From a virus, in UHGV virus genome UHGV-0180032: a stretch of DNA of 64,000 nucleotides, one strand, 5' to 3'. This document shows, in pieces, positions 1,525 to 39,521 of the stretch. The first letter of the stretch is position 1. Each line of letters starts with the position of its first letter. A program made the translations under genes and the position numbers. The notes below the pieces were generated by a model. The model did no database searches, was not told where the DNA came from, and saw only the letters and a program-made list of their open reading frames with translations.

Positions 1525-1558
1525 TCTCCTTTATTCGAGACGTCCTTGTCCCGAGTCA

Positions 1559-6745: not shown

Positions 6746-6759
6746 CGTAAAGACTCCTA

Positions 6760-6801
6760 CTTTTAAATAAAATGGATACCCCTCCCCATTACAGGGAGGG
6801 G
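6760..6801 (-). terminator. hairpin (partial terminator) between two fibre genes
   Basis: Stem CCCTCCCC/GGGAGGGG at 6780-6801 followed on the minus strand by CCATTTTATTT; lies between the stop at 6840 and the start at 6745. Confidence 0.4.
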
Positions 6802-6839
6802 TTACCTACGGACACACAACTGCCCGCAGGCAGCCTGTC

Positions 6840-9800: not shown

Positions 9801-11024
9801 AGCGGTGGTCGCTTTCGTCGGGTCGATAGTCCCCACGATGGGATCGGCACGAGAACCTTTACCGGTAAAACTAATCCCGTTACGGCCTTCGATATACACT
9901 TTGGAGTCATCAGGATCGCTACCGCCACTCCCGCCAGCATCAGGGTCTTGCTGATACTCCATCAGCGCTGTGGTGGTCAACAACGGGTTACCGTTCAGGG
10001 TGAGTTTGTTCATCCCTAAAGCGTCACCGGTTGACTCGATGCGTAAGGTGTTTTTACCCGCACGCCAGTTAATGTAACGCCCCGCACCTGTGCCTTCCAG
10101 ATGCCCTACCGCTAATACCACAGAACCGTTGGATTTTAACGTAAAGCCATCATTCGCAAAAATGATTTCGGATTCACCGTTTTTCGAACGGAATTGTGCG
10201 CGGTTTCCAGACACCGTACAGTTAAACACGCCCCGTACTTCCGAAGAAATCCAGTGGGAGATATACGTGTCAATAACTGACTGTGGTAAACGAAACGCTT
10301 TCAGTTCATCCGTTAACGCTTTCAATTTTAACCCGTACGCCATAAAGGTGTCAGGTGTTTTCAGGTTAACGGGATGGGCATTAATTTGTGCGCTCGTGGT
10401 TTCGTGCGGGTTCGTCGCGGCGATATGTGCTGGGTAGTTAAACGCTTCAATTTCTTTCCCCAACGCAGTCACTAGCACTTTAACTTCGGCTATTTTATCC
10501 TTAATTAGCTGGTTAGCGTCATCGGTTTTCAACTCAATATCGTGAATCGCTGACGCTAAGTATTTTTTGTTCAGCAAATCCGCCCAGGACGTTGCCGCAG
10601 GCGTAGCTGGGTATAACGACGGTCTACCGTCTAACAACAGCCAGTCTGCACTGACTGGGTTATTCAGATATTTCACCAACTCGTCGAGCATGTCAACGAA
10701 CGGGTCGTAGAACGTACCGCCGAGCATTTGTCCTTCAAAGGTTACGATCCCTTTGATGGATGGGTTGATAAGGTGTACCCCACAATACACGTTGGCTGCT
10801 ACCGAGTCATCCAGTTCCGTCAGCTGATATTGCAGTTCGTAGTCCACCCCACGGCTCAGTGGGGTGGTTGAACCTGGTTGTCTGACGACTAAGTCTTCAA
10901 AGAACGGGCGATGGTCTAAAATCACCACCCGGTCATTGTTGTTTTCTGACCCGATGATACGCTCCTCTAAGAAGTGATTCTCGGTTTTCGTCCCCCGAGG
11001 ATCGTAAGGATACGCTTTCATCAA
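6840..11024 (-). CDS. giant virion fibre/tailspike-like protein (1394 aa)
   Basis: Uninterrupted 4.2-kb ORF; starts 10 nt downstream of the preceding gene; N-terminal motif (HRPFFEDL...GVDYEL) shared with neighbours. Confidence 0.55.
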   Translation of the reverse strand: MMKAYPYDPRGTKTENHFLEERIIGSENNNDRVVILDHRPFFEDLVVRQPGSTTPLSRGVDYELQYQLTELDDSVAANVYCGVHLINPSIKGIVTFEGQMLGGTFYDPFVDMLDELVKYLNNPVSADWLLLDGRPSLYPATPAATSWADLLNKKYLASAIHDIELKTDDANQLIKDKIAEVKVLVTALGKEIEAFNYPAHIAATNPHETTSAQINAHPVNLKTPDTFMAYGLKLKALTDELKAFRLPQSVIDTYISHWISSEVRGVFNCTVSGNRAQFRSKNGESEIIFANDGFTLKSNGSVVLAVGHLEGTGAGRYINWRAGKNTLRIESTGDALGMNKLTLNGNPLLTTTALMEYQQDPDAGGSGGSDPDDSKVYIEGRNGISFTGKGSRADPIVGTIDPTKATTAEKGVVKLKTGKGTETVGVAATPASLTPYSTDLSGYVTKTTMINGKPMNDGSRTITKADLGLGQADNTADLDKPLSTALNASVSGLADVGHHHDWSELGIYKASQTIYGIGRYATNQNGLVENRAVVPNILKELSARLDVVAAAIANAKEGTVTDFAAVKGADWRFNSQGTSISVQDLKYFYLLDGTKGDSTVTGAIDLQTTPMFNWFSPNNQLELTWPTGKVSNGTGINWTGIEEPPLMGFQSVAVGKTATQMGDQSVVTVLAKTRVRAYQSKLWVYAAGGGPVTVYINGNLAASGESPLVAVYETSSDVENYTIAVKAECSDTAKSAAVQFEVYDGDYPVYFSGPETRVELLQEFVTTHVGIRHYLYVNMLTGSLYSRAEPIQSVAVDPERGYIGYVDIVAGENYANKTVGFETTFDFGKSAEVSGHIATRKAHGLSSVDWALTDNPRLPLLNRAIAEPRACIFRKALAAGTGDVFHLVSRGLYTYAHNQNVKSSLQYVVIPEGATPYCWFTPFNPKENNAPTFEGSFVFDVDDVGGTQALTAAPDLVLCTSTQGASVKRRYVRIDLTAKACKLGIGSRSVSDVTDIPLVMEESGETAVNATFKDVLFNGEETNPAILDLIGWGAARDKISANHAPRGMIRYRYNVSTRVLRLALSFSQFGTTTVKQRQLEIQFPFDLVDYFTGDGIGLSFKELSAKCRVTISHALIDPVTNNINIDKYHYLRSLFESYLDSSVGYLADNKDADYSQSVIDPATYEISQKYRVTESIALPTGQGSVAVSHDGQLPAQFFDRKLSRGALMAKNNELHTSWNNEWSTTKAAASRYRHKLILRFAQGADKQQYRIAKVTGTIKSNWPGKVIIGDAGKDPFLASTDSAEFALSTSADVGKAISITATDLRVGQDIYIVLDPPGNNPEGYELNFTCSLDVTDEQSTRQDQLNAQSFELRSGEKQFLMEKRNPYHITSKAWKWILSVLKRELNGKQLGDRT

Positions 11025-11034
11025 AAAATTCTCC

Positions 11035-14000
11035 TTAATCGCGAATGATTACCGCCTGCACTTTATTGTTGGTGTCGATAAACGACATTACGCGCTCCTT
11101 GTTAAGATAAGGAGGTATCGGCAACGCAGCATAATCCGCCAGGTTGTTATTAAACTCGGTTGCCACTAACGCATTAAGCGTTTCAGGGTCTGAGCTTGTC
11201 CCGGCCAATTCCACGACGCGTACACGATTTAACGAGGAGTAGTTGCTGATATAATCCAACAGCGTACCGTAGAGTTTATTCCCGGTTATGCTGTCCGCCG
11301 TAGAGCGGATATTGGCACGCACTTCGTCCTCATAAAGTCCCCCTAATCCGTAGTAAATAGGGGTGTACGGATCGTTAACGATAGGCGCGAGGTTGAACCC
11401 GGTTAAACGGTCGGTCAGCGAGATTTTCTGCGTAGTACCACCTGCCGCCGTACAGCTTACGTATTTATCTGCCGCAGACAAATACACCACAATAGTGTAA
11501 ACAGTACCTGCTAAGGTCAGCGTTGCGTTAAACGTTAATTCGTTATTCGCACCACGCGTGTGGGTAAATGTCACATCAGGTTGTAACGTACTCCACGGTG
11601 CTGGGGTAACACGTTTGGTCGGCGTGAAGCCTAACACCACAGATCTCCCGTTACCGAAGTTTAAACCAAACCCGGCGTAACAATACTCACCGTTGCTGTC
11701 AGTTAAACGATAACCACGGGTGATAAGTAACGACAACCGCATAAACTCGTCATCGGTATTTTTCCAGCAACCCAGGATGGTTTCTAGCACCGTACCGGTT
11801 TTTGCGTTGCTTTCGGTTTCCCAACTGACTCGCATCCCCGTATTGTTAAATACTGGGAACAGGTTGTGGATAAACCCGTGAACGTTATCACTTACCCCTT
11901 TCGCATCAAACACCCACTTCGACGCAAGCTGGTCGTATTTCACACCGTCGAGTGCTTTATATCCGCCGCCAACCACATAACGCCAGTCTGCTTCACCACG
12001 CACAACCGCTTGAAGTCCAGAAGCCCAGCAGGGCGCACCTACTGTTAAATTGCTTAACCCCAGCACTGCACGTGAAGCAGAACGCTGAATGTGTGCGTTG
12101 TCATTAGCGACATGGTCTTTCAGCTCACGGAAATCCCCTAACCGTGTCACGTTACGTAGTTCAGTAACGAACACTTCAGAAAGGTCGTTAATACCGATCA
12201 ACCCCACGCGCGTCATGATATCCGTTTCAGCCTGACTGTAGCTGTCGTGAATAATGTACTTCGCTTTGTTATCGACAATGTCAACAAAAATCCCTGCGTA
12301 AACTTCCTTATTCAGATTCGGGAAACGTTCGGTAACGTTAACCGACATCAACGGTACGTTGTACGTTTCACCACCAATGAAATACGTGGAAGCAGGAAGT
12401 GTCACCAGGATTTTGTCTTTAACCGTAACGTCAATTAAGTCGTTACCGGACTTACCAAAGCGAATAATGTCAACTCGCGCACCCGAGTCAACCCCGCCGA
12501 CGGTATTCTCCAGTTTTTCAATCTGGGAAGTCTGCGCCATCACCACACTACTATCGAGTGCTAAAGTGACATCATCCACATCCAGACCGAACTTAATCAG
12601 ACCCCGTTTCGTGGTGTCTGCGTTTTCAACACCGAACACAGAAGACGGGTGTTGGTGAACCTTCGGTGAGTATTTGTCTAACTCAGTCTGCTGTGCAACA
12701 GAAATCGGCAAGTCGAGGTCCGGGGTATTCGCAACATTACCTAAACCAAAGGTAATTTTGTCGATAGTCACCGAACTGGTAAGCTGCATGTCGTTGATAT
12801 ACGACTTGGCAGCAACTAACTTACCGGTAAACTCTGCGTCTAGTTTTTCAATTAACGCGGGTGTAGCTGCAAGGTTTTCAGCCGTACCGAATTCGTCCGT
12901 TAACTGCCAGCAGGCTAACGTTGTGACGTCGTTGGCAACCGGAAGGATAAACGTTGCGACAAACGGTGATGCTTTAATCCCGCTGCCAGTAAGTTCCACG
13001 GTAGACGTCGACGCACCGTAGAACAGACCTGTACCGCCTGCGGTATTACCCGGCAAATACGGACCGACCGTAGTGGGGTCTAAGAGTTTCTTACCACGCC
13101 ACAACAGTCCACGGTCATCGGGGTATAGCACAAGCTGGTTATCGCCTGCCTGTAACGTAACAGGGTTGTTACCCGCATTAACATCGGTGGAGCCTTGACC
13201 GATAAACTTAATGGACTTCGGATCAACGACGAACTGGGCACCTAAACGTTTTTCGTCAACTACACCAGGTGCTTTCTTAATGGTAACCGTGTTACCTTTG
13301 TTTTGCGAACTAATAGAGACGCCGTCAGCAACATTATTGATCAGCGATTTAAAGTGATACCGATTCTCTAATGCTTCTAACGCAGAGTCCATGTTATCGA
13401 AGTTAATCCGGGCGCTATACGTTTTACCGTTTACGGTAATAACGGCGTCAAACACGTTCCCTGTACGCTTCAGTTGAAAACGCAGCGTAAAATCCCCATC
13501 CGGTATTGCTGGATCAGGAGCTTGAGAAATATACCGAACTGACGGTACCGGACTCCCGTAACCGTGCAACGACAGTTCGATAGTAAGAGTACCACCCCAG
13601 ACTTCACCGAAAATCTCTACGTACTTACCGGAGTTACTACCGGGATTTTCGTAGAAACGTAAACCGGCCCTACCGACTGCCTCATTACCAGACGCTGTTT
13701 TACGTCCAGTAACAATAAAGTCAATATCTTGCAGGTTAGCGGGTACCGCATTAAAAGAAGCACTAAATCCATTCTTCGTTCCTGTGTAACGAAGCGCGCC
13801 GTGATACGTGCGGCCTTGACTAACATAGCTTTCGCTAAAATAAGGACTCACGTATTTAGACATCGAAACCGGATCAACTTCTGTCGTGAACGAAGTAAAA
13901 CCGGGCAGCGTTCCAATGGTTCCGTCGGCCGTTTTCGTAGTTGACGTGCGCAGTAGTTTCTTTTGCGCAGCCAATGTTGCTTGCGTTGGATACTTAGCAT

Positions 14001-15357
14001 TAACATAATCTGTTAACTGCGGCTTCGTTTTTCCGTAAGCTAACGCTGTATCCGTCGCAATACCATTCAACTCTAACGCACGGATCGGGCCCCACGTATC
14101 GTTGTGCGGGTTGTCCTTACGTGTAACGTGTTCGTGCGCAGGTGCGTTGCGATAGAGCTGTTCTACTAACTGATGGTACTTAACGATTAGCTGATAAACG
14201 TCATTACTTACGTCTGCTTCTGGCGCACCAGGTAACGCAAGGAATTGAGCGTAATCGTTTTCAGCCGCCCACCAGTTTAAGTTAACGTTGGTTTTGTATT
14301 TCAGCCACTTCGCAACATCCGTTTTGGTGTAACCTGCTGAAAATTCGTCTGGCGGTGTGTCAACGTTAAAGGTGTAGTCCATGGACTGTTTGTTAGTCGT
14401 CACCTCGATAACGTATACACCGTTACCCGGTTGACGAACAACGCTAAACGTTAACTCGCCTTTTAATTCGTCGTCGGTCAAACCGTTGATTAACGTATAA
14501 TCATAATCGGTCGAACCGCTGCCTAACGCAACCGTCAGTCGTAGACCGATTTTACGTTGTTTTAATTGGAGACGAAGGATACTTGCACCACCGTTCGCGT
14601 AGCACAGCATCCAATCGATTTGTTCGTTCGGGTTAATACTCCCCATGTTCGGAAAAATAGCCGGGATACGGTATTTCATCGACAGGGAATATTCATTTAA
14701 CGTGGTGGTTTTGTACGTAACGGAGAAACGACGTTTAGCGGTGTTGTAAGTATACCCACCTTTGTTGTCGTACGTTGCGTACTGTTCAGATGTGATAACC
14801 GTACCATTAGCACGGTGTTCGATATCTAACGTGTTACGTGCAATCGGGTCTACCCGATTCACCACGTTACCTAACGAATCACCTAAGCCTGCAATGGCCT
14901 GCATTAATTCCAGTTCACCTTTCCAGTTTTCCCAGTCGAACTGAATGTCAACCGGTGGAAAGTAAACGTCGCCGATAACGGTATCCCATTGACACGCAGA
15001 CGGGTATTTATCTTTATTGAGTTCGCGTTCTGCGGTAATCTGTTCTTGGGTCGCTTCACCACAACCTACGGCGTGGTAATCTACCGTGAAATTCGATTTG
15101 TATTTGTCGTTAACAATCCAAATCATCCCGTGCACGAGATAGGCTGTGCGCAACATACCGGTCTCGTACGGGTGTGTAATAACGTAATCGTCGCCTAAGG
15201 TCAGTATTTTGCCGCCGCTCTTGACCACCAGGGATGTGGTGAAAAAAGGGGCGTGGGCAGGTACCAACATTCGGTACTTCGTACCAATGACGGCGACCGC
15301 TTCACCGGTTATTTTATTCCCCGGTTCTTTGAAGTGTGGGTCTAGGACGACAGCCAT
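11035..15357 (-). CDS. giant virion fibre/tailspike-like protein (1440 aa)
   Basis: Uninterrupted 4.3-kb ORF, first gene of the minus-strand operon; AGGAG RBS; N-terminal motif (HAPFFTT...GDDYVI) shared with neighbours. Confidence 0.55.
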   Translation of the reverse strand: MAVVLDPHFKEPGNKITGEAVAVIGTKYRMLVPAHAPFFTTSLVVKSGGKILTLGDDYVITHPYETGMLRTAYLVHGMIWIVNDKYKSNFTVDYHAVGCGEATQEQITAERELNKDKYPSACQWDTVIGDVYFPPVDIQFDWENWKGELELMQAIAGLGDSLGNVVNRVDPIARNTLDIEHRANGTVITSEQYATYDNKGGYTYNTAKRRFSVTYKTTTLNEYSLSMKYRIPAIFPNMGSINPNEQIDWMLCYANGGASILRLQLKQRKIGLRLTVALGSGSTDYDYTLINGLTDDELKGELTFSVVRQPGNGVYVIEVTTNKQSMDYTFNVDTPPDEFSAGYTKTDVAKWLKYKTNVNLNWWAAENDYAQFLALPGAPEADVSNDVYQLIVKYHQLVEQLYRNAPAHEHVTRKDNPHNDTWGPIRALELNGIATDTALAYGKTKPQLTDYVNAKYPTQATLAAQKKLLRTSTTKTADGTIGTLPGFTSFTTEVDPVSMSKYVSPYFSESYVSQGRTYHGALRYTGTKNGFSASFNAVPANLQDIDFIVTGRKTASGNEAVGRAGLRFYENPGSNSGKYVEIFGEVWGGTLTIELSLHGYGSPVPSVRYISQAPDPAIPDGDFTLRFQLKRTGNVFDAVITVNGKTYSARINFDNMDSALEALENRYHFKSLINNVADGVSISSQNKGNTVTIKKAPGVVDEKRLGAQFVVDPKSIKFIGQGSTDVNAGNNPVTLQAGDNQLVLYPDDRGLLWRGKKLLDPTTVGPYLPGNTAGGTGLFYGASTSTVELTGSGIKASPFVATFILPVANDVTTLACWQLTDEFGTAENLAATPALIEKLDAEFTGKLVAAKSYINDMQLTSSVTIDKITFGLGNVANTPDLDLPISVAQQTELDKYSPKVHQHPSSVFGVENADTTKRGLIKFGLDVDDVTLALDSSVVMAQTSQIEKLENTVGGVDSGARVDIIRFGKSGNDLIDVTVKDKILVTLPASTYFIGGETYNVPLMSVNVTERFPNLNKEVYAGIFVDIVDNKAKYIIHDSYSQAETDIMTRVGLIGINDLSEVFVTELRNVTRLGDFRELKDHVANDNAHIQRSASRAVLGLSNLTVGAPCWASGLQAVVRGEADWRYVVGGGYKALDGVKYDQLASKWVFDAKGVSDNVHGFIHNLFPVFNNTGMRVSWETESNAKTGTVLETILGCWKNTDDEFMRLSLLITRGYRLTDSNGEYCYAGFGLNFGNGRSVVLGFTPTKRVTPAPWSTLQPDVTFTHTRGANNELTFNATLTLAGTVYTIVVYLSAADKYVSCTAAGGTTQKISLTDRLTGFNLAPIVNDPYTPIYYGLGGLYEDEVRANIRSTADSITGNKLYGTLLDYISNYSSLNRVRVVELAGTSSDPETLNALVATEFNNNLADYAALPIPPYLNKERVMSFIDTNNKVQAVIIRD

Positions 15358-16737: not shown

Positions 16738-16947
16738 TTAGTCTTTTTTGTAGACGATCGCGTTACCGTGCAGTTTGTTGTTACCGGAAATACCGATAAC
16801 TTTAAACGCTTCACCGCCGATCTTTTCAGCTTCGACAGCCAGCTTAGCAGTAACGTCGTCTACGGTGTCACCGAAAGCGCTTACGTTACCAATTTTCTTG
16901 AACTCTTCAGGAATGTGTTCGGCAGAAGAGAATTCTTTAATAGCCAT
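16738..16947 (-). CDS. BhsA/YdgH-like (DUF1471) small protein lacking a signal peptide
   Basis: 69-aa ORF with GGAGAG RBS; C-terminal ...KVIGISGNNKLHGNAIVYKK resembles the BhsA/YcfR ...SFRITSVTGPNTLHGTAVIYK motif as recalled from memory; no N-terminal hydrophobic leader. Confidence 0.5.
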   Translation of the reverse strand: MAIKEFSSAEHIPEEFKKIGNVSAFGDTVDDVTAKLAVEAEKIGGEAFKVIGISGNNKLHGNAIVYKKD

Positions 16948-22504: not shown

Positions 22505-22966
22505 ATGAAAATCTTCACTTCCTTTTTAATCGCCCTTTTCGCAATCGGATTCAATACTGCACACGCCGCAATCAATAGCTGGGAACAACTACCGAACCCA
22601 GGTCAGGCTGTTTACGAAATTGAAGATACCGCCGGAAACGGACTGTCTATCAACTGTGACACTGAAACTGCGAATCGCAAATTTTACGGTCGCATGGTTT
22701 GGTATTACGGGGAACCTGTAGGTGCAACTAACGCTGAAGACAACACGTTGGATATTGTCGTAAATGGCAAAACCTACAACATCCCTACCGTGGATGGTAG
22801 TGACAAAGCAGAACTCGCTTGGGTGGCTTTCGTTAACGCTATCGGTAACGCCAAAACGTTCAGTGTGAATATCAATGGTAACGAAGCTGCTAACTTTACC
22901 GTAGAAGGCGAACGTCTGTCGGAAACTTTCTTCCAGAACTGTGGACACACCCGTCCTAACAAATAA
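22505..22966 (+). CDS. secreted/periplasmic hypothetical protein
   Basis: N-terminal signal-peptide-like segment MKIFTSFLIALFAIGFNTAHA; GAGGAG RBS. Confidence 0.55.
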   Translation: MKIFTSFLIALFAIGFNTAHAAINSWEQLPNPGQAVYEIEDTAGNGLSINCDTETANRKFYGRMVWYYGEPVGATNAEDNTLDIVVNGKTYNIPTVDGSDKAELAWVAFVNAIGNAKTFSVNINGNEAANFTVEGERLSETFFQNCGHTRPNK

Positions 22967-25937: not shown

Positions 25938-25986
25938 CGAGAGAACCTTCGGGTTCTCTCCCTTCTCTTTTATTTTTTTTTCTTTT
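25938..25986 (+). terminator. intrinsic terminator
   Basis: GAGAGAACC/GGTTCTCTC stem with TTCG loop followed by a long T-run. Confidence 0.75.
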
Positions 25987-26017: not shown

Positions 26018-28522
26018 ATGTTAAAAGTTGAACGTATTGTACTTAAAGGATTTACCGGAATGGGGTTACACGAAATCGAAACCTTCGATTTTACTATCCA
26101 TTCCCCGACCACCATTATCCTCGGTGGTAACGGCTGCGGTAAGACCAGCTTACTGTCCGTGTTTCTACCTATCGCACCTTCGAAATCCGAATTCCGTGAC
26201 GGGGGTTCTTACACCAATATCTGTTTGGTTAACGACCATCGTTACAAGTTTAAAGTTGCACGTAAAGGCAACTCACTGGTTTGCGATATCGAGAACCTGA
26301 CGACGGGTACCAAAATCGTCGAGCAAGGTAATGCGAAAGTGTACAACTCTCGCGTGGAAGAAATCACGGGTATTACAAAAGAGATTAAAGAGTTACTGAA
26401 CGGGGAAGTGCTTTTAACCGATGCAGGAACGGAACTGCGTCGTAAGTGGTTCTACCGTTTAAGTACATCAGACTTAACGTACGCGTTAGGTTTTTATCAA
26501 CGTTTACGAAAAAACCTGACGATGCTAAACGGCGGTATTGAAATCACCAGCCGTAAAATTGCAGAGTTGCGTACCCGCGTAATTGATAACGAGGAAGAAC
26601 GACAGCAGTTAGCAACACGGTTAAAAGCATTAGAAGCAGATTTACGTGAACTCAACAAACAGATCGAACAACTGCCTGGTCTGAATCGTGACGTTACGGT
26701 GGCAACGATTCAATCGCTATTGCTTAAAATCGAAGCACCGATTAATGCTATCTTGGAACACCGTGGTGGATTACCTACGGAAGAACAGGTAGAGGAAGCA
26801 CGACGCGTTGAAGCCACTGCCCGTGAAGCGGTGGTCTCTGCTGAAACAGAACTGTCTATGCTAAACAAAGATTTGTCTTTGTTGATGGACGAGTCTACCC
26901 GCCAAGATTACCTGATGCGAAATCACGAAGGGTTAAAGAACACGGTTGCGAAACTGCGCGAGTTATTAAAGCAGTGGGACACTGAGCACCTTTTCCCTGA
27001 ACTGTTTGCGGAGACCGTTAACATCGACCAGCTTAAAGCAGCGACGGATGCGCGTGTCTGGGGACAACGTTTAGGAACAACGCTGGACGCCATTAAATCA
27101 ACGGAACGGTTGAACGTACTGGAAGAGAAACTGTTGACCTTAGACCAAAACTCGTCTGGGTTGCGTGACCGACTGCAACGTGTTGAAAACGTATTGCAGA
27201 ACCTCAACCACGAACGGAATCACTATTTGGAAACCGCCGAGGTTGATTGTCCGCAGTGTCAGTTTAAATTCCGTCCGGGTGTCCGTCGTTCTTTGCCTGA
27301 ATTGGAAGAAGCCATTCGTGGGCAGATGGAGCAACGTAATACGTTACAGACTCAACTTGATTCCGTGTTGCGAGACCGTACGGAATTAGAATCGGACGTT
27401 AATTACATGCGTCAAGTACGAGAAATCGTTTTAACATACTCGAAAGACCCGGTATTGAGTTTGTTCTTTAAACGTCTCCAGGAGCGGAATGTCTTTACGG
27501 ATAACCGCAGTCAGTTCGGCAGTTTGTGCGCAGAGTTCGATCGTGAACTTTATTCCGCAATTGAGTACCACGAAACGAAACACCGTTTCGCTAAAGCGGA
27601 AAAAGAGTGGGCAAACGCAGTTGCAGCGGTAGGTAACGTTGACGGTGCACTACAGCAGAAAATTGCCTTCCAACAGGAACGTTTGGGTAAGGCAACAGAA
27701 ACGCTCTCAGAGCGCCGTAGAGAGCACGCAGTTGCTAATGATACCTTTTGTTATCTAAACGAACTTAAAGCCACTGTAGACAATTTTAATGCGGTTTTTG
27801 AGCGTTTAGAGAACGATGTTAAGGTAACATTAACCAACACGGTGGTCGAAACGTTATTAAACGCCCGAGAAAACAAGTTGGATGCGTTCACCACAGCACG
27901 AGAACGGTATCGTCAAATGGAAAACGAACTCAACCAACTTACTGCGTTAGAAAAGGAGTTATCAGATTTACAAGCGCAGCAATTCAATAACAAGCTGATG
28001 ATTCAAGCGTTCTCGCCCGAGAAAGGGGTACTACGCAAATACTTCTACAACGCTATCGTGAGAATCACGGAATTGATGACGCGGTATATCGAACAAGTCT
28101 GGACCTACCCTATGCGGGTCATGCCGTGTGACTTAACCGACGGTGACTTAGACTACACCTTCCCAGTGCAGTTGAAAACCCATCCTGAACCGGTACCTGA
28201 CGTACGGAAAGGGTCGAAAGCACAGCGAGCCATCTTTAATTTGATGTTTCGTTTAACCGCTTACAAGGCCCTGAAACTCCATCAGTATCCGCTACTGTTG
28301 GATGAACCGTCAGAAGGGATGGATGAAGAACACCGAAATAACCTCGTTGGGTTTATTAAAACCTTGGCGAATTCCGGTGAGTTCTCTCAGTTACTGGTGG
28401 TGTCTCACGAAGCAGAAATTCATTCAAAACTTAACGAAGCCGCATACTGTGTTATTGAACCTGAAGGCGTAACACTGCCTGCGGTTTACAATGAAGGAGT
28501 AAAAATTGTCTACGCAAACTGA
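26018..28522 (+). CDS. Rad50/SbcC-like recombination ATPase (T4 gp46-like) with zinc hook
   Basis: Walker A GGNGCGKTS near the N-terminus; long heptad-rich middle with CPQC hook; C-terminal KGSKAQRAIFNLMF (signature-like), LLLDEPSEGMD (Walker B/D-loop) and VVSHE (H-loop); start 26018 (or 26006) chosen over the ORF-track 25841, which would run through the upstream terminator. Confidence 0.75.
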   Translation: MLKVERIVLKGFTGMGLHEIETFDFTIHSPTTIILGGNGCGKTSLLSVFLPIAPSKSEFRDGGSYTNICLVNDHRYKFKVARKGNSLVCDIENLTTGTKIVEQGNAKVYNSRVEEITGITKEIKELLNGEVLLTDAGTELRRKWFYRLSTSDLTYALGFYQRLRKNLTMLNGGIEITSRKIAELRTRVIDNEEERQQLATRLKALEADLRELNKQIEQLPGLNRDVTVATIQSLLLKIEAPINAILEHRGGLPTEEQVEEARRVEATAREAVVSAETELSMLNKDLSLLMDESTRQDYLMRNHEGLKNTVAKLRELLKQWDTEHLFPELFAETVNIDQLKAATDARVWGQRLGTTLDAIKSTERLNVLEEKLLTLDQNSSGLRDRLQRVENVLQNLNHERNHYLETAEVDCPQCQFKFRPGVRRSLPELEEAIRGQMEQRNTLQTQLDSVLRDRTELESDVNYMRQVREIVLTYSKDPVLSLFFKRLQERNVFTDNRSQFGSLCAEFDRELYSAIEYHETKHRFAKAEKEWANAVAAVGNVDGALQQKIAFQQERLGKATETLSERRREHAVANDTFCYLNELKATVDNFNAVFERLENDVKVTLTNTVVETLLNARENKLDAFTTARERYRQMENELNQLTALEKELSDLQAQQFNNKLMIQAFSPEKGVLRKYFYNAIVRITELMTRYIEQVWTYPMRVMPCDLTDGDLDYTFPVQLKTHPEPVPDVRKGSKAQRAIFNLMFRLTAYKALKLHQYPLLLDEPSEGMDEEHRNNLVGFIKTLANSGEFSQLLVVSHEAEIHSKLNEAAYCVIEPEGVTLPAVYNEGVKIVYAN

Positions 28523-28706
28523 TTGGTGGCGTCAGTTACTAAGCGTTTTAGGGTTTAGCGTCATGGTACTGGTTGCCATTCTGTACGTGCTATTTTGTAT
28601 AACGGCGATTTTATGGGTGGTCTTAGCGTACGCGATTAGACTCGCCTGGGGTTCAATTTGGCACCAACGCGAATGTGAGTGGCGGTGTGTTGGAGGGAAG
28701 TCATGA
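28506..28706 (+). CDS. small membrane protein
   Basis: TTG start preceded by AAGGAGT; single strong hydrophobic helix; overlaps the end of the Rad50-like gene. Confidence 0.35.
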   Translation: MSTQTDWWRQLLSVLGFSVMVLVAILYVLFCITAILWVVLAYAIRLAWGSIWHQRECEWRCVGGKS

Positions 28707-28813
28707 TTGAGGGTATTCTGTTAACACTTGGGTCGTTGTGGATTATTGGGAAATCCCTCAACTGGCTGATTAATAAGTACGGATGGGCTTTCAAAGGCTC
28801 TACGCACAGTTAA
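28703..28813 (+). CDS. small hydrophobic protein (36 aa)
   Basis: ATGA overlap with the previous ORF; GGAGGGAAG RBS; hydrophobic ...GILLTLGSLWIIG... Confidence 0.3.
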   Translation: MIEGILLTLGSLWIIGKSLNWLINKYGWAFKGSTHS

Positions 28814-28820
28814 GTTAGAA

Positions 28821-28851
28821 CCCCCTCCTGGGTAACTGGGAGGGCGTTTTA
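28821..28851 (+). terminator. intrinsic terminator (weak)
   Basis: CCCTCC/GGAGGG stem followed by CGTTTT. Confidence 0.4.
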
Positions 28852-28863
28852 CGAGGGGAAACC

Positions 28864-28992
28864 ATGACTGTTGTCAATACTACCAATGCTGCAATTGGCG
28901 CTTTATACAACGCGGAACTAACATGGGGTGCGGGATTTATTACCGTACTGCTTCTCGCCGCAGCCGCTTTTATCATTGGACGTTGGTTTTAA
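28864..28992 (+). CDS. small membrane protein (42 aa)
   Basis: GAGGGGAAACC before ATG; C-terminal helix GFITVLLLAAAAFIIGRWF. Confidence 0.3.
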   Translation: MTVVNTTNAAIGALYNAELTWGAGFITVLLLAAAAFIIGRWF

Positions 28993-29024: not shown

Positions 29025-29468
29025 ATGGAAATTTATTTGTTGAACGCACTTTCTAAAATCGGTGAAGAACAAGCGAAAGATTTACTCGCGCTTCATTACC
29101 GTTACTTAGATCATCAAGCAACGATGCTGAAAATCAAAACCGCTGTACCGAAATTAAACGTGCGTCAACTGATCGAAGGCAACTGTGTTGTTCTGATTTA
29201 TATCGACGATGTTGCGGTGGGTTATTGCAGTTATCGTAATCGCAACGGGGTACTCAAAATTCGTTCGTTATACGTGCTGCCTGATTACCGTCAGCGTGGG
29301 GTAATGAAAGAAATCTTCAAAGCGATAGCCGCTGATGAAGCATTCGGTGAAATTGCCATTGGGATGTACACGAAGTGCAAAGAAGCGAAAGAGTATTTCA
29401 TTCGTCGTGGCTACAAAGCAACCTATTCTCACGATAAAGAATGGGTGGATTTCAGCAAAACTTTCTAA
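29025..29468 (+). CDS. GNAT-family acetyltransferase-like protein
   Basis: 147 aa; motif ...YVLPDYRQRGVMKEIFKAI resembles GNAT motif A (R-x-x-G-x-G/A). Confidence 0.45.
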   Translation: MEIYLLNALSKIGEEQAKDLLALHYRYLDHQATMLKIKTAVPKLNVRQLIEGNCVVLIYIDDVAVGYCSYRNRNGVLKIRSLYVLPDYRQRGVMKEIFKAIAADEAFGEIAIGMYTKCKEAKEYFIRRGYKATYSHDKEWVDFSKTF

Positions 29469-29535
29469 AACAATAAAAGGCTCTCTTGACGTTCCTCACT
29501 ATGAGTGTGAGAATTTTACGTCAGGAGAGCTACTT

Positions 29536-29772
29536 ATGTTAAACAGTTTCGGTGTAGGTGGAATGGATACAAGCATTTGCTGGAAAGAATACGAACGCGC
29601 AAAAGCATTTCTCCAGCATCCCAACGTGGGCAAGATCGGTCAGGTGTGTTTTGGTAAACCTGCACTGACGGCCTGTATTCAAGGTGCGTTAGGAACGCTG
29701 CCACCTGAATCACCTTTCGAGCCTAAGGAGAATCCAGATGTTACCAGGAACCCAAACCCCGTATCTATTTAG
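29536..29772 (+). CDS. hypothetical protein (78 aa)
   Basis: ATG with AGGAGAG RBS; the ORF-track start at 29335 would overlap the GNAT gene. Confidence 0.4.
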   Translation: MLNSFGVGGMDTSICWKEYERAKAFLQHPNVGKIGQVCFGKPALTACIQGALGTLPPESPFEPKENPDVTRNPNPVSI

Positions 29773-30112
29773 TGAACCACTGGATAACAGCGACATCTTA
29801 CAAATCTGTTATCAGTGTCACGAAGTCGGTGGTAGTGAACTTACGCGGGTTAATAAACTACTGTGGCTGATTCCAGAAATCGAATTACCGTTCGTTAAAC
29901 CGAGTTTGTGGCGTCGTGGTGCGTGTCGTGAAGCGTATATGCTGTCAAGATTTAACATTAATCTGGAGAAGGTCTGGGAGAAAATGAATGATGCCCAAAC
30001 CCGAGAACAGATTACGCACACGCTGGAATTGCATCTTGCCATGAAACGCCTCGGTCTTGAGCATGAAGGGCTAGAGTCCGTTATCAGTCAATGGGTGAAA
30101 AGGAATCGTTAA
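29738..30112 (+). CDS. hypothetical protein (124 aa) with CxxC
   Basis: AAGGAGA RBS; CYQCHE motif; overlaps the previous ORF by 35 nt. Confidence 0.45.
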   Translation: MLPGTQTPYLFSEPLDNSDILQICYQCHEVGGSELTRVNKLLWLIPEIELPFVKPSLWRRGACREAYMLSRFNINLEKVWEKMNDAQTREQITHTLELHLAMKRLGLEHEGLESVISQWVKRNR

Positions 30113-30212
30113 TGTCTAAAACGTATATAGCGATTTTGGTTGAGTTAGCAATTGGCGGTACGCGGTTTATTCCTGTGCATCAACTGCGCATAGCCCAGTC
30201 GGTAAGACCGTT

Positions 30213-30710
30213 ATGCTAACGATACTTCCAGAATCGGATATTAACAACGACCTGTTTAACGCGCCTGAACGCTTCAAGGTCGTTACGATAAATTGCGTAG
30301 GGGCAATGGGTCGGGGTATCGCTTTAGCGTGCAGAGAACGCTATCCTGGGCTTTATCAGGACTACCGAGAGCGTTGCTTCGCTAACGAAATACGAATAGG
30401 GAATGTGTACGTTTACCCCGAGGAAAACTGCATTCTCTTACCAACAAAAACACATTGGAAACTGAAATCCCAGGTTTCTTATGTTATCGCGGGTATCACC
30501 GCGTTGGCAGATGCCGCAGAAAACTTAGAGGGTGGGGTGGCTTTACCGCCGTTGGGGATGGCTAACGGTTGGTTGACAAAAGCTGAACGTCAACAAATCT
30601 TTTTGTTTATCGAAAAGAAACTCGTACCGAGGAGACAACATTACCGTTTCTATTTACCTGATACGCTTTACCAAGAAGCAAAACCTTTAATTCCAAACCT
30701 TTTTAAATAG
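30213..30710 (+). CDS. macro-domain (ADP-ribose-processing, TARG1/DarG-like) protein candidate
   Basis: N-terminal VVTINCVGAMGRGIALACRERYPG resembles the macro-domain MG-x-GIA ligand-binding strand; later LPPLGMANG; assignment by motif memory only. Confidence 0.4.
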   Translation: MLTILPESDINNDLFNAPERFKVVTINCVGAMGRGIALACRERYPGLYQDYRERCFANEIRIGNVYVYPEENCILLPTKTHWKLKSQVSYVIAGITALADAAENLEGGVALPPLGMANGWLTKAERQQIFLFIEKKLVPRRQHYRFYLPDTLYQEAKPLIPNLFK

Positions 30711-30728
30711 ATATTATCATTAGGGCAC
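30705..30728 (+). promoter_or_regulatory. promoter-like motif, degenerate copy
   Basis: AAATAGATATTATCATTAGGGCAC; overlaps the stop of the macro-domain gene. Confidence 0.25.
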
Positions 30729-30810
30729 ACAACAAAGGAGTACCAGCTGTCCGCGCCGTGATTTCGTTCTACGGAACACGGAAATGTATAAATCCAACTG
30801 GAGAACTAGT

Positions 30811-31497
30811 ATGTTTCGTATTTTCTTTCTTTTACTGGTAACACTTTTCGCGTTTAACGCATACGCATCCAAATCCGCGCCCAGTGCCAAACACCATCGT
30901 GAATTCGAAATGATTCAAGACCGTTTCGAACGTGTAAAACCGTTGATTGTGGAAATCTCCCGAAAGCAGGGCGTCGATCCTAAATTGATGACCACGCTAA
31001 TCTATCGAGAGTCACGGTTTAATCCGAAGGCGTATAATCGAACGTCTAAAGCGCACAGTCTGGTTCAGATGCTACCGAGCACAAAGCGTAATTTGCTAAA
31101 ACTCTACGGCAACGAAATCGGGCTTAGTCGTAACGCGGATTTGTACAATCCTCGCAATGCGGTGCTATTGGCTTCCGTCTACGTTAAACATTTAGAAAAG
31201 GGGTTGACTAAACGACTCAAACGCAAGCCCACTATTGCAGAAATTGCATTGGCTTATCACTGGGGTGAAAGCGGTGCACACGCCAGGATTAAAAGCAAGT
31301 CTCGGGCAGCACAACGAGAAATGGCGAGCTTTATGAAAGATGCAACGTTCTACAGTGCGAAAATCGACAAGCCTGTAGCGTCTCGTCAGCTTGCGTTTGC
31401 GAAGAAACCAGAACGCCAGATTCAGTTAGCGGAAGTTAACCGAATTTGGGATACGATAAACACCAGTTTTCCATTTAAACAAGGAGTCACCCTTTGA
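30811..31497 (+). CDS. secreted lytic transglycosylase (SLT-domain)
   Basis: Signal peptide MFRIFFLLLVTLFAFNAYA; catalytic-region motif RESRFNPKA...SKAHSLVQMLPST matches the SLT E-S ... GLMQ pattern; GGAGAA RBS before ATG 30811 (ORF-track start 30784 possible). Confidence 0.6.
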   Translation: MFRIFFLLLVTLFAFNAYASKSAPSAKHHREFEMIQDRFERVKPLIVEISRKQGVDPKLMTTLIYRESRFNPKAYNRTSKAHSLVQMLPSTKRNLLKLYGNEIGLSRNADLYNPRNAVLLASVYVKHLEKGLTKRLKRKPTIAEIALAYHWGESGAHARIKSKSRAAQREMASFMKDATFYSAKIDKPVASRQLAFAKKPERQIQLAEVNRIWDTINTSFPFKQGVTL

Positions 31498-37272: not shown

Positions 37273-38007
37273 ATGACATACCCGAAAACGATTCAACCCA
37301 CCTTACCGACGCTGGTAATTGGTGCTGACGCAGAAACCAAATCACTGCGTCCTGATGCGTATCTGTTAACCACAGGCTTAGTTGCCTTTGACGTACCGAC
37401 TTTAAAAATGGTAGGGTCGTCGTATATGCGTATTGATCCTAACGACCCTAAAGCAAAAGCTGTGTTCCACGAAGATCCACAGACCGTAGGATGGTGGGAA
37501 GGTAAAGGGGAACCTGAATACGCGCCGTCTCGCGAAGCCTACACGGAAGCATGGAGCGGTACAACACCTATGCCGGAAGCGCTGTGGGCGATGCGTAAGT
37601 GGTTAGACGAAATCACCGGTAAACACAATTTCGTGATTACCATGCGTGGGCCGGATTTCGATTCTCCGATTTTCATGAACGCGTTTGCGCAATGTGACGT
37701 TCCTCCAGGTAAATTCCGTAAGTTCAGCGCGTTAGACAGTGACCGCACCGCAGAACGTTTAGCGCTGGCGTTTGGTTTTGAGCCTGATTTGACCGTTGAG
37801 CAAGTTTACTGGACGCGGGGCAAACCGGCATTTGAACACCATGCTTTGTGGGATGCCGCGAAAGAAGCTTATACCACCGCACGTATTTATCACCTTGCAC
37901 TGATTACCCGCGAGTACGGGTACGAACGTGCTAAAGCCTGTCACGAAGAACTGAAAACCGGTGAGTATATTCCACCACAGATTCGTGATCAGTTAACCAG
38001 GGATTAA
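37273..38007 (+). CDS. dexA: DEDDh-type 3'-5' exonuclease (DexA-like)
   Basis: Exo I-like VIGADAETKS, Exo II-like RGPDFDSPIF and Exo III-like EHHALWDAAKEAY motifs; AAAGGAG RBS. Confidence 0.55.
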   Translation: MTYPKTIQPTLPTLVIGADAETKSLRPDAYLLTTGLVAFDVPTLKMVGSSYMRIDPNDPKAKAVFHEDPQTVGWWEGKGEPEYAPSREAYTEAWSGTTPMPEALWAMRKWLDEITGKHNFVITMRGPDFDSPIFMNAFAQCDVPPGKFRKFSALDSDRTAERLALAFGFEPDLTVEQVYWTRGKPAFEHHALWDAAKEAYTTARIYHLALITREYGYERAKACHEELKTGEYIPPQIRDQLTRD

Positions 38008-38009
38008 GA

Positions 38010-39521
38010 ATGAAGAACGTTGATGTTGCTGTACTTTATACCGACGGTAGCCATTTAACCTCACCGATGGGAACAGGCGGTGGGATTCACGGCTACCTGT
38101 TTAACAAGGAAGAGATTGTTGACGGTGGCGTTTATCGCCACCCTACTATTCCCGAAGGGATTACGACCTCAGGCTATCGCCAGATTAACAAAGAGGAAAA
38201 ACTTCCTACGTTACCAGACTCTGTTGAGTTCGTGGACTGCGTTATTCCGGTACCGAAACACCACCACTCCGATGTTGCAGAGATTGTTGCTTTTTTAACC
38301 GTTTTTGAAAAAGCACCATTCGTTGCAAAAAACTACGTTATCTATATCGATGCGTCCTACGTTGTGAATACGTTTAACGATTGGATTGACGGTTGGGCTA
38401 AGCGGGACTGGCGACGGGCTGATGGCACCCCTATCGCGAACCTTGAGCTGGTTCAACGGATGTGGGAAATTAAGAAACGTCTGAAGCGTGAAGGGAAAGG
38501 GATTCGTGTTCTTAAAATCAAAGGACACTCTGGTCACTACGGTAACGAACGGGCTGACGAGCTGGCACGAAAAGGATCGTCCATCTCTGCACACGGAGAA
38601 GGCTTAGATTATCAAGCGTACTGGTCGGCAGACGAAATTCCGGAAGAACAGCAGGAAGAAATTGTCAGCGAAGGCGTTAACGTTGCCGCGTTTCCTGATA
38701 TTTGCGTAACCAAGTTCTGTTACCCGATGGTAAATGAGCAGCACCCTACGGTTAAAGTAAACGGTGAAAATCTCTATTACATGTTCGGGGGTAACCACGC
38801 AAAACAGAAGGACGATATTGTCTTCGTTGGGAAATACATTCCTGATGCGCAGTTCTGTGTGATGTTTACACGTGAGCCGTGGACGAACGTTTACGATTTG
38901 GTTAACGCCCACGCTGCTAAAGCCTGGGAGGGTGTACCACGTTTGCGTCAGTTTGACCCTATCGCTGTTGTGTTCAACTTGTTCGTAAAACGTAAGAAGT
39001 TTGCGGAAGCGGCGGCTAATGGCATTCCGGTTGACAAAATGCACTTTAGCGAAGACAAGAACCTGTGGATGTACGAAGACTTGTCTATCAGTCGTATTCT
39101 GCGTCCCGCGTTATTGTCATACCGCTGCATTTCCATTCGTGATGAACTGGCAGAATGGTTACGTGACTGTTTGGAAGGCAAATCGAACGTTGTCTTAAAC
39201 GACATTACCGATTTGCTTTATGACGAAAAAGGTAAACCCACCAAAGACTTTTACCGAAACGTGGATAAAGGGTTTGACGTTTCCATTAAAATCCCTAACG
39301 GGAAGGTTGCCGTTAAAACTATTTTGACACGTGCTATCGACTTACCGACGCGTACGGAAATCAACCGTATCAAAGAACCGAATGGACGATTCTACGTCGC
39401 TGTACGTCGTCCAGAACGTCAGTACGTTGAATACGCGTTAGTGTATATCGGTGAGAAGTATCACGGTCTGTGGTGTGGTTATTATTCAAACAAACGAATA
39501 TTGACCGATAAGGAACTTTGA
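38010..39521 (+). CDS. rnhA: RNase HI domain protein with a roughly 300-aa C-terminal extension
   Basis: N-terminal 190 aa contain the RNase HI hallmarks: ...LYTDGS..., E in AEIVAF, D in YIDASYVV, W..W..DG.PI.N, and KGHSGHYGNERADELAR. Confidence 0.8.
   Translation: MKNVDVAVLYTDGSHLTSPMGTGGGIHGYLFNKEEIVDGGVYRHPTIPEGITTSGYRQINKEEKLPTLPDSVEFVDCVIPVPKHHHSDVAEIVAFLTVFEKAPFVAKNYVIYIDASYVVNTFNDWIDGWAKRDWRRADGTPIANLELVQRMWEIKKRLKREGKGIRVLKIKGHSGHYGNERADELARKGSSISAHGEGLDYQAYWSADEIPEEQQEEIVSEGVNVAAFPDICVTKFCYPMVNEQHPTVKVNGENLYYMFGGNHAKQKDDIVFVGKYIPDAQFCVMFTREPWTNVYDLVNAHAAKAWEGVPRLRQFDPIAVVFNLFVKRKKFAEAAANGIPVDKMHFSEDKNLWMYEDLSISRILRPALLSYRCISIRDELAEWLRDCLEGKSNVVLNDITDLLYDEKGKPTKDFYRNVDKGFDVSIKIPNGKVAVKTILTRAIDLPTRTEINRIKEPNGRFYVAVRRPERQYVEYALVYIGEKYHGLWCGYYSNKRILTDKEL

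Follow-up and report, generated by a model that had tools for sequence, protein, structure and literature searches.

The ATPase gene and the small ORFs behind it

The locus described here lies in a 64,000-nucleotide stretch of DNA (the window) from an uncultivated jumbo phage of the Chimalliviridae, the phiKZ-like, nucleus-forming phages. It holds the gene for an ABC ATPase, three small ORFs that follow it on the same strand, and two RNA hairpins (Table 1). The ATPase ORF begins with an ATG at 26018, with GGAGGTGG upstream, and ends with a TGA at 28520-28522. Megablast of the region against a phage collection returned no match, and relatives were found by protein-level search. The closest cultured ones are Erwinia phage Asesino, phiEaH2, and Salmonella phage SPN3US, whose genera belong to the Chimalliviridae. 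Positions 16018-38522 of the window are 100% identical to ENA contig ERZ1744496 NODE_10 (223,842 bp).

Table 1. Features of the ATPase locus and the distal nuclease gene
Feature	Position	Strand	Detail or basis
Terminator-like hairpin upstream of ATPase gene	25939..25960	+	terminator scan and RNA fold
Rad50/SbcC-type ABC ATPase	26018..28522	+	834 aa; PHROG 77, Pfam SMC_N, AF2/Foldseek
Walker A / P-loop, G36-G-N-G-C-G-K-T43	26123..26146	+	ATPase homolog alignment
Predicted zinc-hook motif C411-P-Q-C414, coiled-coil apex	27248..27259	+	alignment and AF2 model
Signature-like motif S733-K-A-Q736, counterpart of ABC 'SGGQ'	28214..28225	+	alignment
Walker B (LLLDE, D762-E763) and D-loop (D769)	28289..28324	+	alignment
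H-loop S796-H797	28403..28408	+	both residues invariant in 20 ATPase homologs
Shine-Dalgarno-like AAGGAGT in ATPase 3' end	28494..28500	+	5 nt before orfA TTG
orfA, 66 aa, TTG start	28506..28706	+	PHROG 16515, 3e-06; 17-nt overlap with ATPase stop
orfB, 36 aa	28703..28813	+	PHROG 13448, 1.8e-12; 4-nt (ATGA) overlap with orfA
GC-rich hairpin between orfB and orfC	28823..28844	+	RNA fold
orfC, 42 aa	28864..28992	+	conserved in relatives; no PHROG match
SbcD-like nuclease, 382 aa	L015 6037-7185	same as ATPase	PHROG 100, AF2/Foldseek

The original prediction of a Rad50-like ATPase is borne out. PHROG 77 ('SbcC-like subunit') matches the protein at 1e-91, and Rad50 heads are the best matches among solved structures in a phmmer search of PDB (1.3e-4). 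A Foldseek search with the AF2 model (pLDDT 82.8) placed entry 7zr1, C. thermophilum Rad50, first at 1.9e-18. The model has two head lobes (residues 1-127 and 672-832) and an antiparallel coiled coil, with outward helices at about 138-405 and returning helices at about 426-664, joined mid-protein by a short beta-hairpin (residues 409-419) that carries a CPxC motif. This motif is a predicted zinc hook. Its residues C411, P412, and C414 are invariant among 20 ATPase homologs, phiKZ gp165 has a counterpart in the CPSC at its residue 412, and neither the model nor the alignment places an SMC-type globular hinge dimerisation domain at the coiled-coil apex. The ABC head is bipartite, with the Walker A motif N-terminal and the signature, Walker B, D-loop, and H-loop C-terminal. 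Among the same homologs, which extend down to 22% identity, residues G36, N38, G39, G41, and K42 of Walker A are invariant, as are S733, L761, D762, E763, and D769, while G732, A735, and Q736 are at least 90% conserved. The stretch around S733 aligns with the Rad50 signature region of PDB 3qkt and 5da9.

The protein is nonetheless very divergent from model Rad50/SbcC proteins. We judge it so because the Pfam SMC_N match (1.2e-8, 35.1 bits) falls slightly under the 40-bit cut-off, because similarity to T4 gp46 is weak (hhalign probability of 49% over 67 C-terminal columns only; E of 0.064 with the ATPase family HMM), and because the fold search gives other proteins of the SMC family (Smc5/6, condensin, MukB, Lamassu, and JetC) scores only a little lower than Rad50.

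What are the small ORFs downstream? They had been described as three overlapping ORFs encoding hydrophobic peptides, a description that fits in part. Three ORFs exist and orfA overlaps orfB, but orfC stands 50 nt apart. The TTG start of orfA behind AAGGAGT can be read directly from the sequence, as claimed. By the Kyte-Doolittle maximum in a 19-residue window, orfA has a strongly hydrophobic core (2.93) and orfC has a hydrophobic segment at its C-terminus, which ends in RWF (2.15), but the amphipathic orfB is only borderline hydrophobic (1.50). orfA, with its LYxxFC and CEWR motifs, recurs at this position in relatives, Asesino (gp208) and SPN3US among them. Asesino-like and SPN3US-like phages have orfB at 53-68% identity, and it is still recognisable where the ATPase is about 52% identical. 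orfC is 64-67% identical in the clade with an 87%-identical ATPase, has a gene call in most of the metagenome contigs, and shows weak similarity (45%, E 0.005) in SPN3US-like phages. The small ORFs are real rather than chance ORFs: orfA and orfB match PHROGs, and enterobacterial relatives preserve both the place and the sequence of all three. Their number differs among relatives, with three here and four in Asesino and SPN3US; the window is without a 71-86-aa ORF found in relatives (82-86 aa in Asesino and SPN3US). Holin annotations in SPN3US yielded nothing bearing on the small ORFs.

In the hairpin upstream of the ATPase gene, a 9-bp stem closes a UUCG loop, and a T-rich run comes next. It folds at -15.2 kcal/mol (z = -4.83), which none of 200 shuffles equalled, and may act as a terminator. 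The second hairpin, within the orfB-orfC gap, has a 9-bp stem and a GUAA loop followed by CGUUUUA. It folds at -21.2 kcal/mol (z = -3.25; 1 of 200 shuffles folds as well) and may likewise be functional, although the terminator scan omitted it because its T-run is too short. A sigma-70 promoter scan was uninformative, with 4 sites against 5.1 expected; phages of this kind use their own RNA polymerases.

A distal SbcD-like nuclease

The claim that no Mre11/SbcD gene lies near the ATPase holds over the whole 64-kb window. No GNH[DE]-type motif occurs in any of its stop-to-stop ORFs of at least 80 aa, tblastn with phiKZ gp65 returned nothing (best E 0.43), and nothing in its six-frame translation matched an SbcD-like HMM (best E 0.41) that was built from 42 Chimalliviridae proteins and recovered the controls phiKZ gp65 (2.5e-111) and T4 gp47 (7.6e-6). 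We rejected as the missing nuclease the 244-aa product of 37273-38007, about 9 kb downstream and annotated 'exonuclease/endodeoxyribonuclease'; it is a DEDDh Rv2179c-like 3'-5' exonuclease and no metallophosphoesterase.

Extending the search for an Mre11/SbcD homolog beyond the window, as had been suggested, revealed a gene for an SbcD-like protein of 382 aa, on the same strand as the ATPase gene and about 86 kb away from it. It was located on a sibling IMG/VR/JGI contig, IMGVR_UViG_3300045988_078609 (224,831 bp), and not on the 100%-matching contig ERZ1744496 NODE_10; the sibling encodes an identical ATPase protein, and its DNA is 96% identical to the window. The cluster representative, P0001, is recorded on one 31-kb Logan contig only. 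Two alternatives had been offered, a nuclease partner elsewhere or a different partner for the ATPase, and it is the first that stood. The original prediction had itself named a nuclease elsewhere in the genome as the finding that would overturn it. The oddity of a lone ATPase came from applying a T4-type gene order to a different phage family.

The distal protein is a canonical Mre11/SbcD-fold metallophosphoesterase and an ortholog of phiKZ gp65. PHROG 100 (SbcD-like) matches it at 2e-63, and its AF2 model (pLDDT 92.7) has the phosphoesterase core, capping domain, and C-terminal helices of the Mre11 fold; these helices may bind the Rad50-like ATPase. Each of the best 20 PDB matches in a Foldseek search is an Mre11/SbcD protein; E. 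coli SbcD (7yzo_A, 3.6e-13) ranks first, and its alignment covers the full length of the nuclease. Calcineurin-like phosphoesterase motifs I-V are present with their metal ligands conserved: D22/H24, G57-D58, G97-T98-S100-H101, H180-G181, and H212/H214 are invariant among 42 homologs, and D61 is at least 90% conserved. The nuclease is predicted to be catalytically competent. Motif III reads G97-T-P-S100-H101-D102 (GTPSHD) and not GNHD, with the canonical Asn absent, so a hunt for GNHD would probably miss this protein. Phmmer of the nuclease against PDB sequences found nothing, leaving its kinship with Mre11 visible by fold search only, and the Pfam Metallophos match to phiKZ gp65 is marginal (1.3e-3, 19.6 bits against a 21.5-bit cut-off); hhalign of the nuclease family profile with T4 gp47 gave a probability of 91%.

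The ATPase, for its part, is an ortholog of phiKZ gp165, with which it aligns end-to-end (24.7% identity, E 5e-65), and shares 69% amino acid identity with Asesino gp207 and 58% with the SPN3US 'SMC domain protein'. Its gene, part of the family core, is present in one copy and keeps its position across the Chimalliviridae. Some public records name the ATPase itself 'SbcCD subunit D'. PhiPA3 gp165, despite its number, is a tail sheath protein and irrelevant here.

The two genes are kept apart throughout the family. In phiKZ, the map positions are 55 kb for gp65 (annotated SbcD-like) and 169 kb for gp165; in Asesino, the nuclease gp44 lies at 21.7 kb and the ATPase gp207 at 170.9 kb; and the layout is also split in SPN3US. 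The nuclease is present on each of the 10 near-full-length IMG/VR contigs that have the ATPase, always on the ATPase strand and 86-99 kb away (the shorter arc, with the map taken as circular). Across the relatives checked, phiKZ included, the spacing is 86-114 kb. Homologs of phiKZ gp65, gp66, gp68, and gp70 surround the nuclease gene in conserved order, and among the phiKZ counterparts gp66-gp70 of this core block are genes for non-virion RNA polymerase and nuclear import.

The two genes also occur together. We found ATPase matches in 290 phage records and nuclease matches in 313, with near-identical genus profiles (ATPase/nuclease: Pseudomonas 81/81, Erwinia 62/62, Salmonella 25/24, Vibrio 22/23, Serratia 21/21, Aeromonas 19/19, Klebsiella 16/16, and Ralstonia 13/13). 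Nearly all jumbo phages are described as carrying SbcC and SbcD homologs (PMC7824862). In phiKZ, 065 ('nuclease') and 165 ('SbcC-like nuclease') belong to the Chimalliviridae core genome and both have knock-down phenotypes (PMC12571901), and orf165 tolerated zero transposon insertions (bioRxiv 10.1101/2025.11.23.690004). The main text of the Chimalliviridae core-genome paper makes no mention of SbcC, SbcD, gp65, or gp165.

Proposed function and alternatives

We consider it very likely that the ATPase is the Rad50/SbcC-type subunit of a phage Mre11-Rad50 (SbcCD-like) complex, whose SbcD-like partner is encoded about 86-114 kb away in this phage family. The two proteins would form a physical complex. 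If the ATPase behaves as Rad50/SbcC does, two chains would pair at the CPxC zinc hook and, in an ATP-dependent manner, at their heads, and the dimer would clamp DNA ends and license the nuclease subunit. In recombination-dependent replication and repair of the phage DNA, the complex would resect the ends or open them, working alongside the UvsX-like recombinase (45634-47130), with the exonuclease gene mentioned above and an RNase H-domain gene (38010-39521) as possible contributors.

Could the ATPase instead act without a nuclease, as an SMC/condensin-like organiser of DNA in the phage nucleus, the SbcD-like gene having an unrelated role? We regard this as improbable. SMC_N is the best Pfam match, Smc5/6, condensin, and MukB lie near Rad50 in the fold search, and none of the Chimalliviridae relatives checked has the two genes linked. 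However, an invariant CPxC hook sits at the apex where an SMC protein would have its hinge domain, Rad50 ranks first by sequence as well as by fold, the genus profiles of the ATPase and the Mre11-like nuclease agree closely over about 300 phage genomes, and no kleisin-like partner was seen adjoining the ATPase gene.

It is more doubtful still that a single module, such as a membrane-tethered DNA-handling or exclusion system, unites the ATPase with the small membrane proteins. Such a module would suit the gene arrangement, in which orfA starts within the last ATPase codons behind a strong Shine-Dalgarno sequence, the stop of orfA overlaps the start of orfB, and hairpins flank ATPase-orfA-orfB. 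It would also suit a pattern that recurs in Erskinevirus, Seoulvirus, and enterobacterial relatives farther off, where 2-4 short hydrophobic ORFs come after the ATPase gene. Against it, nothing in phiKZ clearly corresponds: the next annotated gene past gp165 is encoded on the other strand, and a single hydrophobic ORF lies there on the plus strand. The number of small ORFs is variable, with the 71-86-aa ORF missing from the window, and overlapping small ORFs are commonplace in phages, T4 having 46.1, 46.2, and 47.1 around genes 46 and 47. No Rad50 system is known to need membrane partners. Co-location is the only tie between the ATPase and the small ORFs, which are conserved small membrane proteins that share its transcription and translation context but are probably functionally unrelated to it. 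We give just as little credence to the idea that the gene separation is itself functional (through different timing, or through separate nuclear import with the nuclease licensed only there), or that the small proteins tie the ATPase to a membrane such as that of the early-infection vesicle.

Least plausible of all is an accessory defence or anti-defence ABC ATPase (Lamassu LmuB-like, Wadjet JetC-like, or OLD/AbiEii-like): Pfam AAA_15 and AAA_21 match weakly and Lamassu and JetC chains appear among the fold matches, but defence-family matches are far weaker than that to PHROG 77, and this is a core gene, conserved in position and fitness-relevant or essential in phiKZ. The Pfam and PHROG searches gave no significant match to a defence-system model, and the distribution of the gene is not patchy.

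Comparison with known Mre11-Rad50 systems

The Rad50/SbcC-type reading places the window's phage, a different and uncultivated species, beside phiKZ (gp165/gp65), Asesino (gp207/gp44), and SPN3US, whose proteins are orthologous and collinear over their full length and which share both the hook position and the unlinked genes. With T4 gp46/gp47 it has in common the two-subunit logic of an ABC ATPase with a coiled coil and a calcineurin-like nuclease, and small ORFs flank these genes in both phages. The T4 genes, in contrast, sit in one cluster in the order 47, 46.2, 46.1, 46, whereas here they are about 86 kb apart; T4 gp46 has 560 aa against 834 for the ATPase, and the T4-type nuclease motif is GNHD where the Chimalliviridae nuclease has GTPSHD.

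Bacterial sbcC and sbcD form one operon. E. coli SbcCD and archaeal and eukaryotic Mre11-Rad50 share with the phage pair both subunit folds, the zinc hook, the bipartite ABC head, and the nuclease metal-binding motifs I, II, IV, and V, and the nuclease model best fits E. coli SbcD (7yzo_A) and T. maritima Mre11 (3thn). Sequence identity to these systems is only 10-16%, and, unlike in Mre11-Rad50 systems, no Nbs1-like or other accessory subunit was identified here.

The ATPase is thus an ordinary, already annotated core gene of phiKZ-like phages, and its partner lies where the family keeps it. T4 gene order is an unsafe expectation for other phage families, and with GTPSHD in place of GNHD, motif searches overlook the Mre11-like nuclease of the Chimalliviridae. 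The Mre11-Rad50 pair of nucleus-forming phages is known from its genes and from phiKZ fitness, and both genes are core.

Identity and spread of the ATPase

The 834-aa ATPase encoded in the window is an SbcC-like protein of a phiKZ-like phage. It matches PHROG 77, "SbcC-like subunit of palindrome specific endonuclease" (1e-91), and Pfam SMC_N at 1.2e-8 (35.1 bits, slightly under the 40-bit gathering score); among solved structures, its top sequence matches are Rad50 head domains. In an alignment of 20 homologs with identity down to 22%, the invariant residues include Walker A (G36, N38, G39, G41, K42), the signature-like S733 with Q736, Walker B (L761-D762-E763) with D-loop D769, the H-loop (S796-H797), and a mid-protein C411-P412-x-C414. 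In the AlphaFold model (pLDDT 82.8), an antiparallel coiled coil joins two head lobes and the CPQC motif lies in an apical beta-hairpin. Among PDB structures, the model is closest in fold to Chaetomium thermophilum Rad50 (7zr1, 1.9e-18), with other SMC-family proteins close behind. Because it has a zinc hook instead of a hinge, the ATPase groups with Rad50/SbcC rather than with SMC proper.

A nucleotide-level search of the phage collection with the region returned no match. At the protein level, the best matches of the ATPase are from Erwinia phages Asesino and phiEaH2 (68-69%), followed by Salmonella phage SPN3US and its relatives (58%). phiKZ gp165 aligns end to end at 24.7% identity (E 5e-65) and has CPSC at residue 412. 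The 290 matching phage records come mostly from phiKZ-like phages that infect Pseudomonas, Erwinia, Salmonella, Vibrio, Serratia, Aeromonas, Klebsiella and Ralstonia; Chimalliviridae includes the genera Erskinevirus and Seoulvirus.

Window positions 16018-38522 are 100% identical to ENA ERZ1744496 NODE_10_length_223842, and contigs of 224-239 kb from many public metagenome assemblies encode the exact ATPase. Since this protein is indexed in 116 public-assembly blocks from several unrelated samples, the phage appears to be widespread. Metagenome gene calls also place a YdgH/BhsA-like and a YfjT-family protein in the window. Both families are normally found in annotations of enterobacterial hosts, which hints at such a host for this phage.

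Features of the window and, in the last row, the nuclease gene at locus L015 of the sibling contig
Feature	Position	Strand	Length	Remarks
Virion structural protein genes, four consecutive	319-15357	-	401, 1728, 1394, 1440 aa	PHROG 2163, 7449, 8078, 7557
YdgH/BhsA-like protein	about 16738-16947	-	69 aa	PF07338
YfjT-family protein	22505-22966	+	153 aa	PF27224
Hairpin upstream of ATPase gene	25939-25960			9-bp stem, UUCG, then T-run
ATPase ORF	26018-28522	+	834 aa	ATG 26018 likely start, preceded by GGAGGTGG
orfA	28506-28706		66 aa	TTG start 5 nt past AAGGAGT; 17-nt overlap with ATPase stop
orfB	28703-28813		36 aa	ATGA overlap with orfA
orfB-orfC spacer	28814-28863		50 nt	Stable hairpin, -21.2 kcal/mol
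orfC	28864-28992		42 aa	50 nt past orfB
Region including GNAT acetyltransferase	29025-31497	+		PHROG 3810, 2.2e-26
Macro-domain protein (weak)	30213-30710	+		Pfam 1.2e-3
SLT transglycosylase-type endolysin	30784-31497	+		PF01464
DEDDh Rv2179c-like 3'-5' exonuclease	37273-38007	+	244 aa	Pfam 2.6e-12
RNase H-domain protein	38010-39521	+	503 aa	Pfam 5.4e-21
UvsX/RecA-like recombinase	45634-47130	+	498 aa	PHROG 97, 1e-54
SbcD-like nuclease	L015 6037-7185		382 aa	PHROG 100 SbcD-like, 2e-63

A distal SbcD-like nuclease

The original prediction described a Rad50-type ATPase without a nearby Mre11/SbcD gene, and this description is correct: there is no Mre11/SbcD-type nuclease gene near the ATPase or in the window. 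A motif scan of window ORFs of at least 80 aa detected no GNH[DE]-like motif, and tblastn of phiKZ gp65, the SbcD-like subunit according to RefSeq annotation, found nothing in the window. An SbcD-like HMM made from 42 Chimalliviridae proteins likewise gave no hit when run on all six reading frames of the window (best E 0.41) and recovered its positive controls, phiKZ gp65 (2.5e-111), Asesino gp44 and T4 gp47 (7.6e-6). The 244-aa nuclease was rejected as an SbcD candidate, being a DEDDh exonuclease and not a phosphoesterase.

Where, then, is the nuclease? An Mre11/SbcD-type gene exists elsewhere, as shown on a sibling contig, IMG/VR 3300045988_078609 (224,831 bp; JGI Ga0495776_008976), whose ATPase protein is identical to that of the window and whose DNA is 96% identical. 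The gene lies about 86 kb from the ATPase gene on the same strand, in agreement with the first of the two alternatives in the original prediction, that the partner lay elsewhere. All 10 near-complete IMG/VR contigs having the ATPase also have the nuclease, always on the same strand and at 86-99 kb (shorter arc, map taken as circular). In phiKZ, gp65 (55.1-56.2 kb) and gp165 (169.1-171.6 kb) are about 113 kb apart; in Asesino, the SbcD-like gp44 is at 21.7 kb and the ATPase, gp207, at 170.9 kb. Gene order 3' of the nuclease is as in phiKZ, with homologs of gp66, gp68 and gp70. Homologs of gp65 occur in 313 phage records, with a genus profile that almost matches that of the ATPase.

The metal-ligand motifs of the SbcD-like protein are conserved across 42 homologs (D22-x-H24, G57-D58-x-x-D61, H180-G181, H212-x-H214), and motif III reads G-T-P-S-H-D. 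The 20 best PDB fold matches of its model (pLDDT 92.7) are all Mre11/SbcD, with SbcD from the E. coli SbcCD head complex (7yzo_A, 3.6e-13) at the top; T4 gp47 matches the family profile with 91% probability. With this gene found, the puzzle of a missing partner dissolves; an Mre11 gene elsewhere in the genome is what the original prediction itself had named as evidence against it. It arose because T4 gene order was expected in a different phage family.

Small ORFs and other window genes

Hydrophobic segments are clear in orfA and orfC, the first and last of three small ORFs 3' of the ATPase gene, and borderline in orfB. orfA and orfB belong to PHROG 16515 and PHROG 13448, neither with an assigned function. 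All three are kept at the same position in relatives, and 2-4 ORFs of this kind are the rule there in enterobacterial Chimalliviridae. The window lacks a 71-86-aa ORF that several relatives carry (82-86 aa in Asesino and SPN3US); in Asesino-/SPN3US-like relatives this extra hydrophobic ORF sits between the orfB and orfC equivalents (L030 5738-5998, L037 5735-5983). Asesino (KX397364.2) has a clear, unannotated orfB homolog (L001 14704-14796; 58% identity over 31 aa), distinct from the annotated gp209 and gp210. phiKZ has no clear equivalent of the small ORFs. In T4, too, small ORFs (46.1, 46.2, 47.1) surround genes 46 and 47. Apart from shared expression signals, we found no link between these ORFs and the ATPase. 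The endolysin gene is about 2 kb away.

The recombination genes of this phage are scattered and do not form a cluster; the UvsX/RecA-like recombinase, a type of protein named Nlp1/gp152 in phiKZ, is encoded about 17 kb 3' of the ATPase gene. The exonuclease, variously labelled "endodeoxyribonuclease" or "exonuclease" in public records, directly precedes the RNase H-domain gene, whose product is apparently the counterpart of phiKZ155, a protein reported to be essential and to have a nuclease-independent role (PMC12571901). The four structural proteins cross-match each other's PHROG families and appear to be giant structural paralogs arranged in tandem.

Prior knowledge and significance

SbcC and SbcD are practically universal among jumbo phages (Iyer et al.; PMC7824862). 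A phiKZ ASO screen places 065 ("nuclease", ++) and 165 ("SbcC-like nuclease", +) in the Chimalliviridae core genome (PMC12571901), and a TnSeq preprint reports orf165 without insertions (bioRxiv 10.1101/2025.11.23.690004). The ATPase is therefore a known feature, and its split layout across the family is readable from annotated records. The family is already known, and the finding carries limited weight as a discovery. The name of the other subunit, "nuclease SbcCD subunit D", has been given to the ATPase ortholog in MT679221.1 (Proteus phage 7) and in OQ383623.1 (Salmonella phage MET_P1_082_240); such labels could confuse pan-genome summaries built on product names. We infer that the ATPase and the SbcD-like nuclease form a complex, which would act in the phage nucleus.
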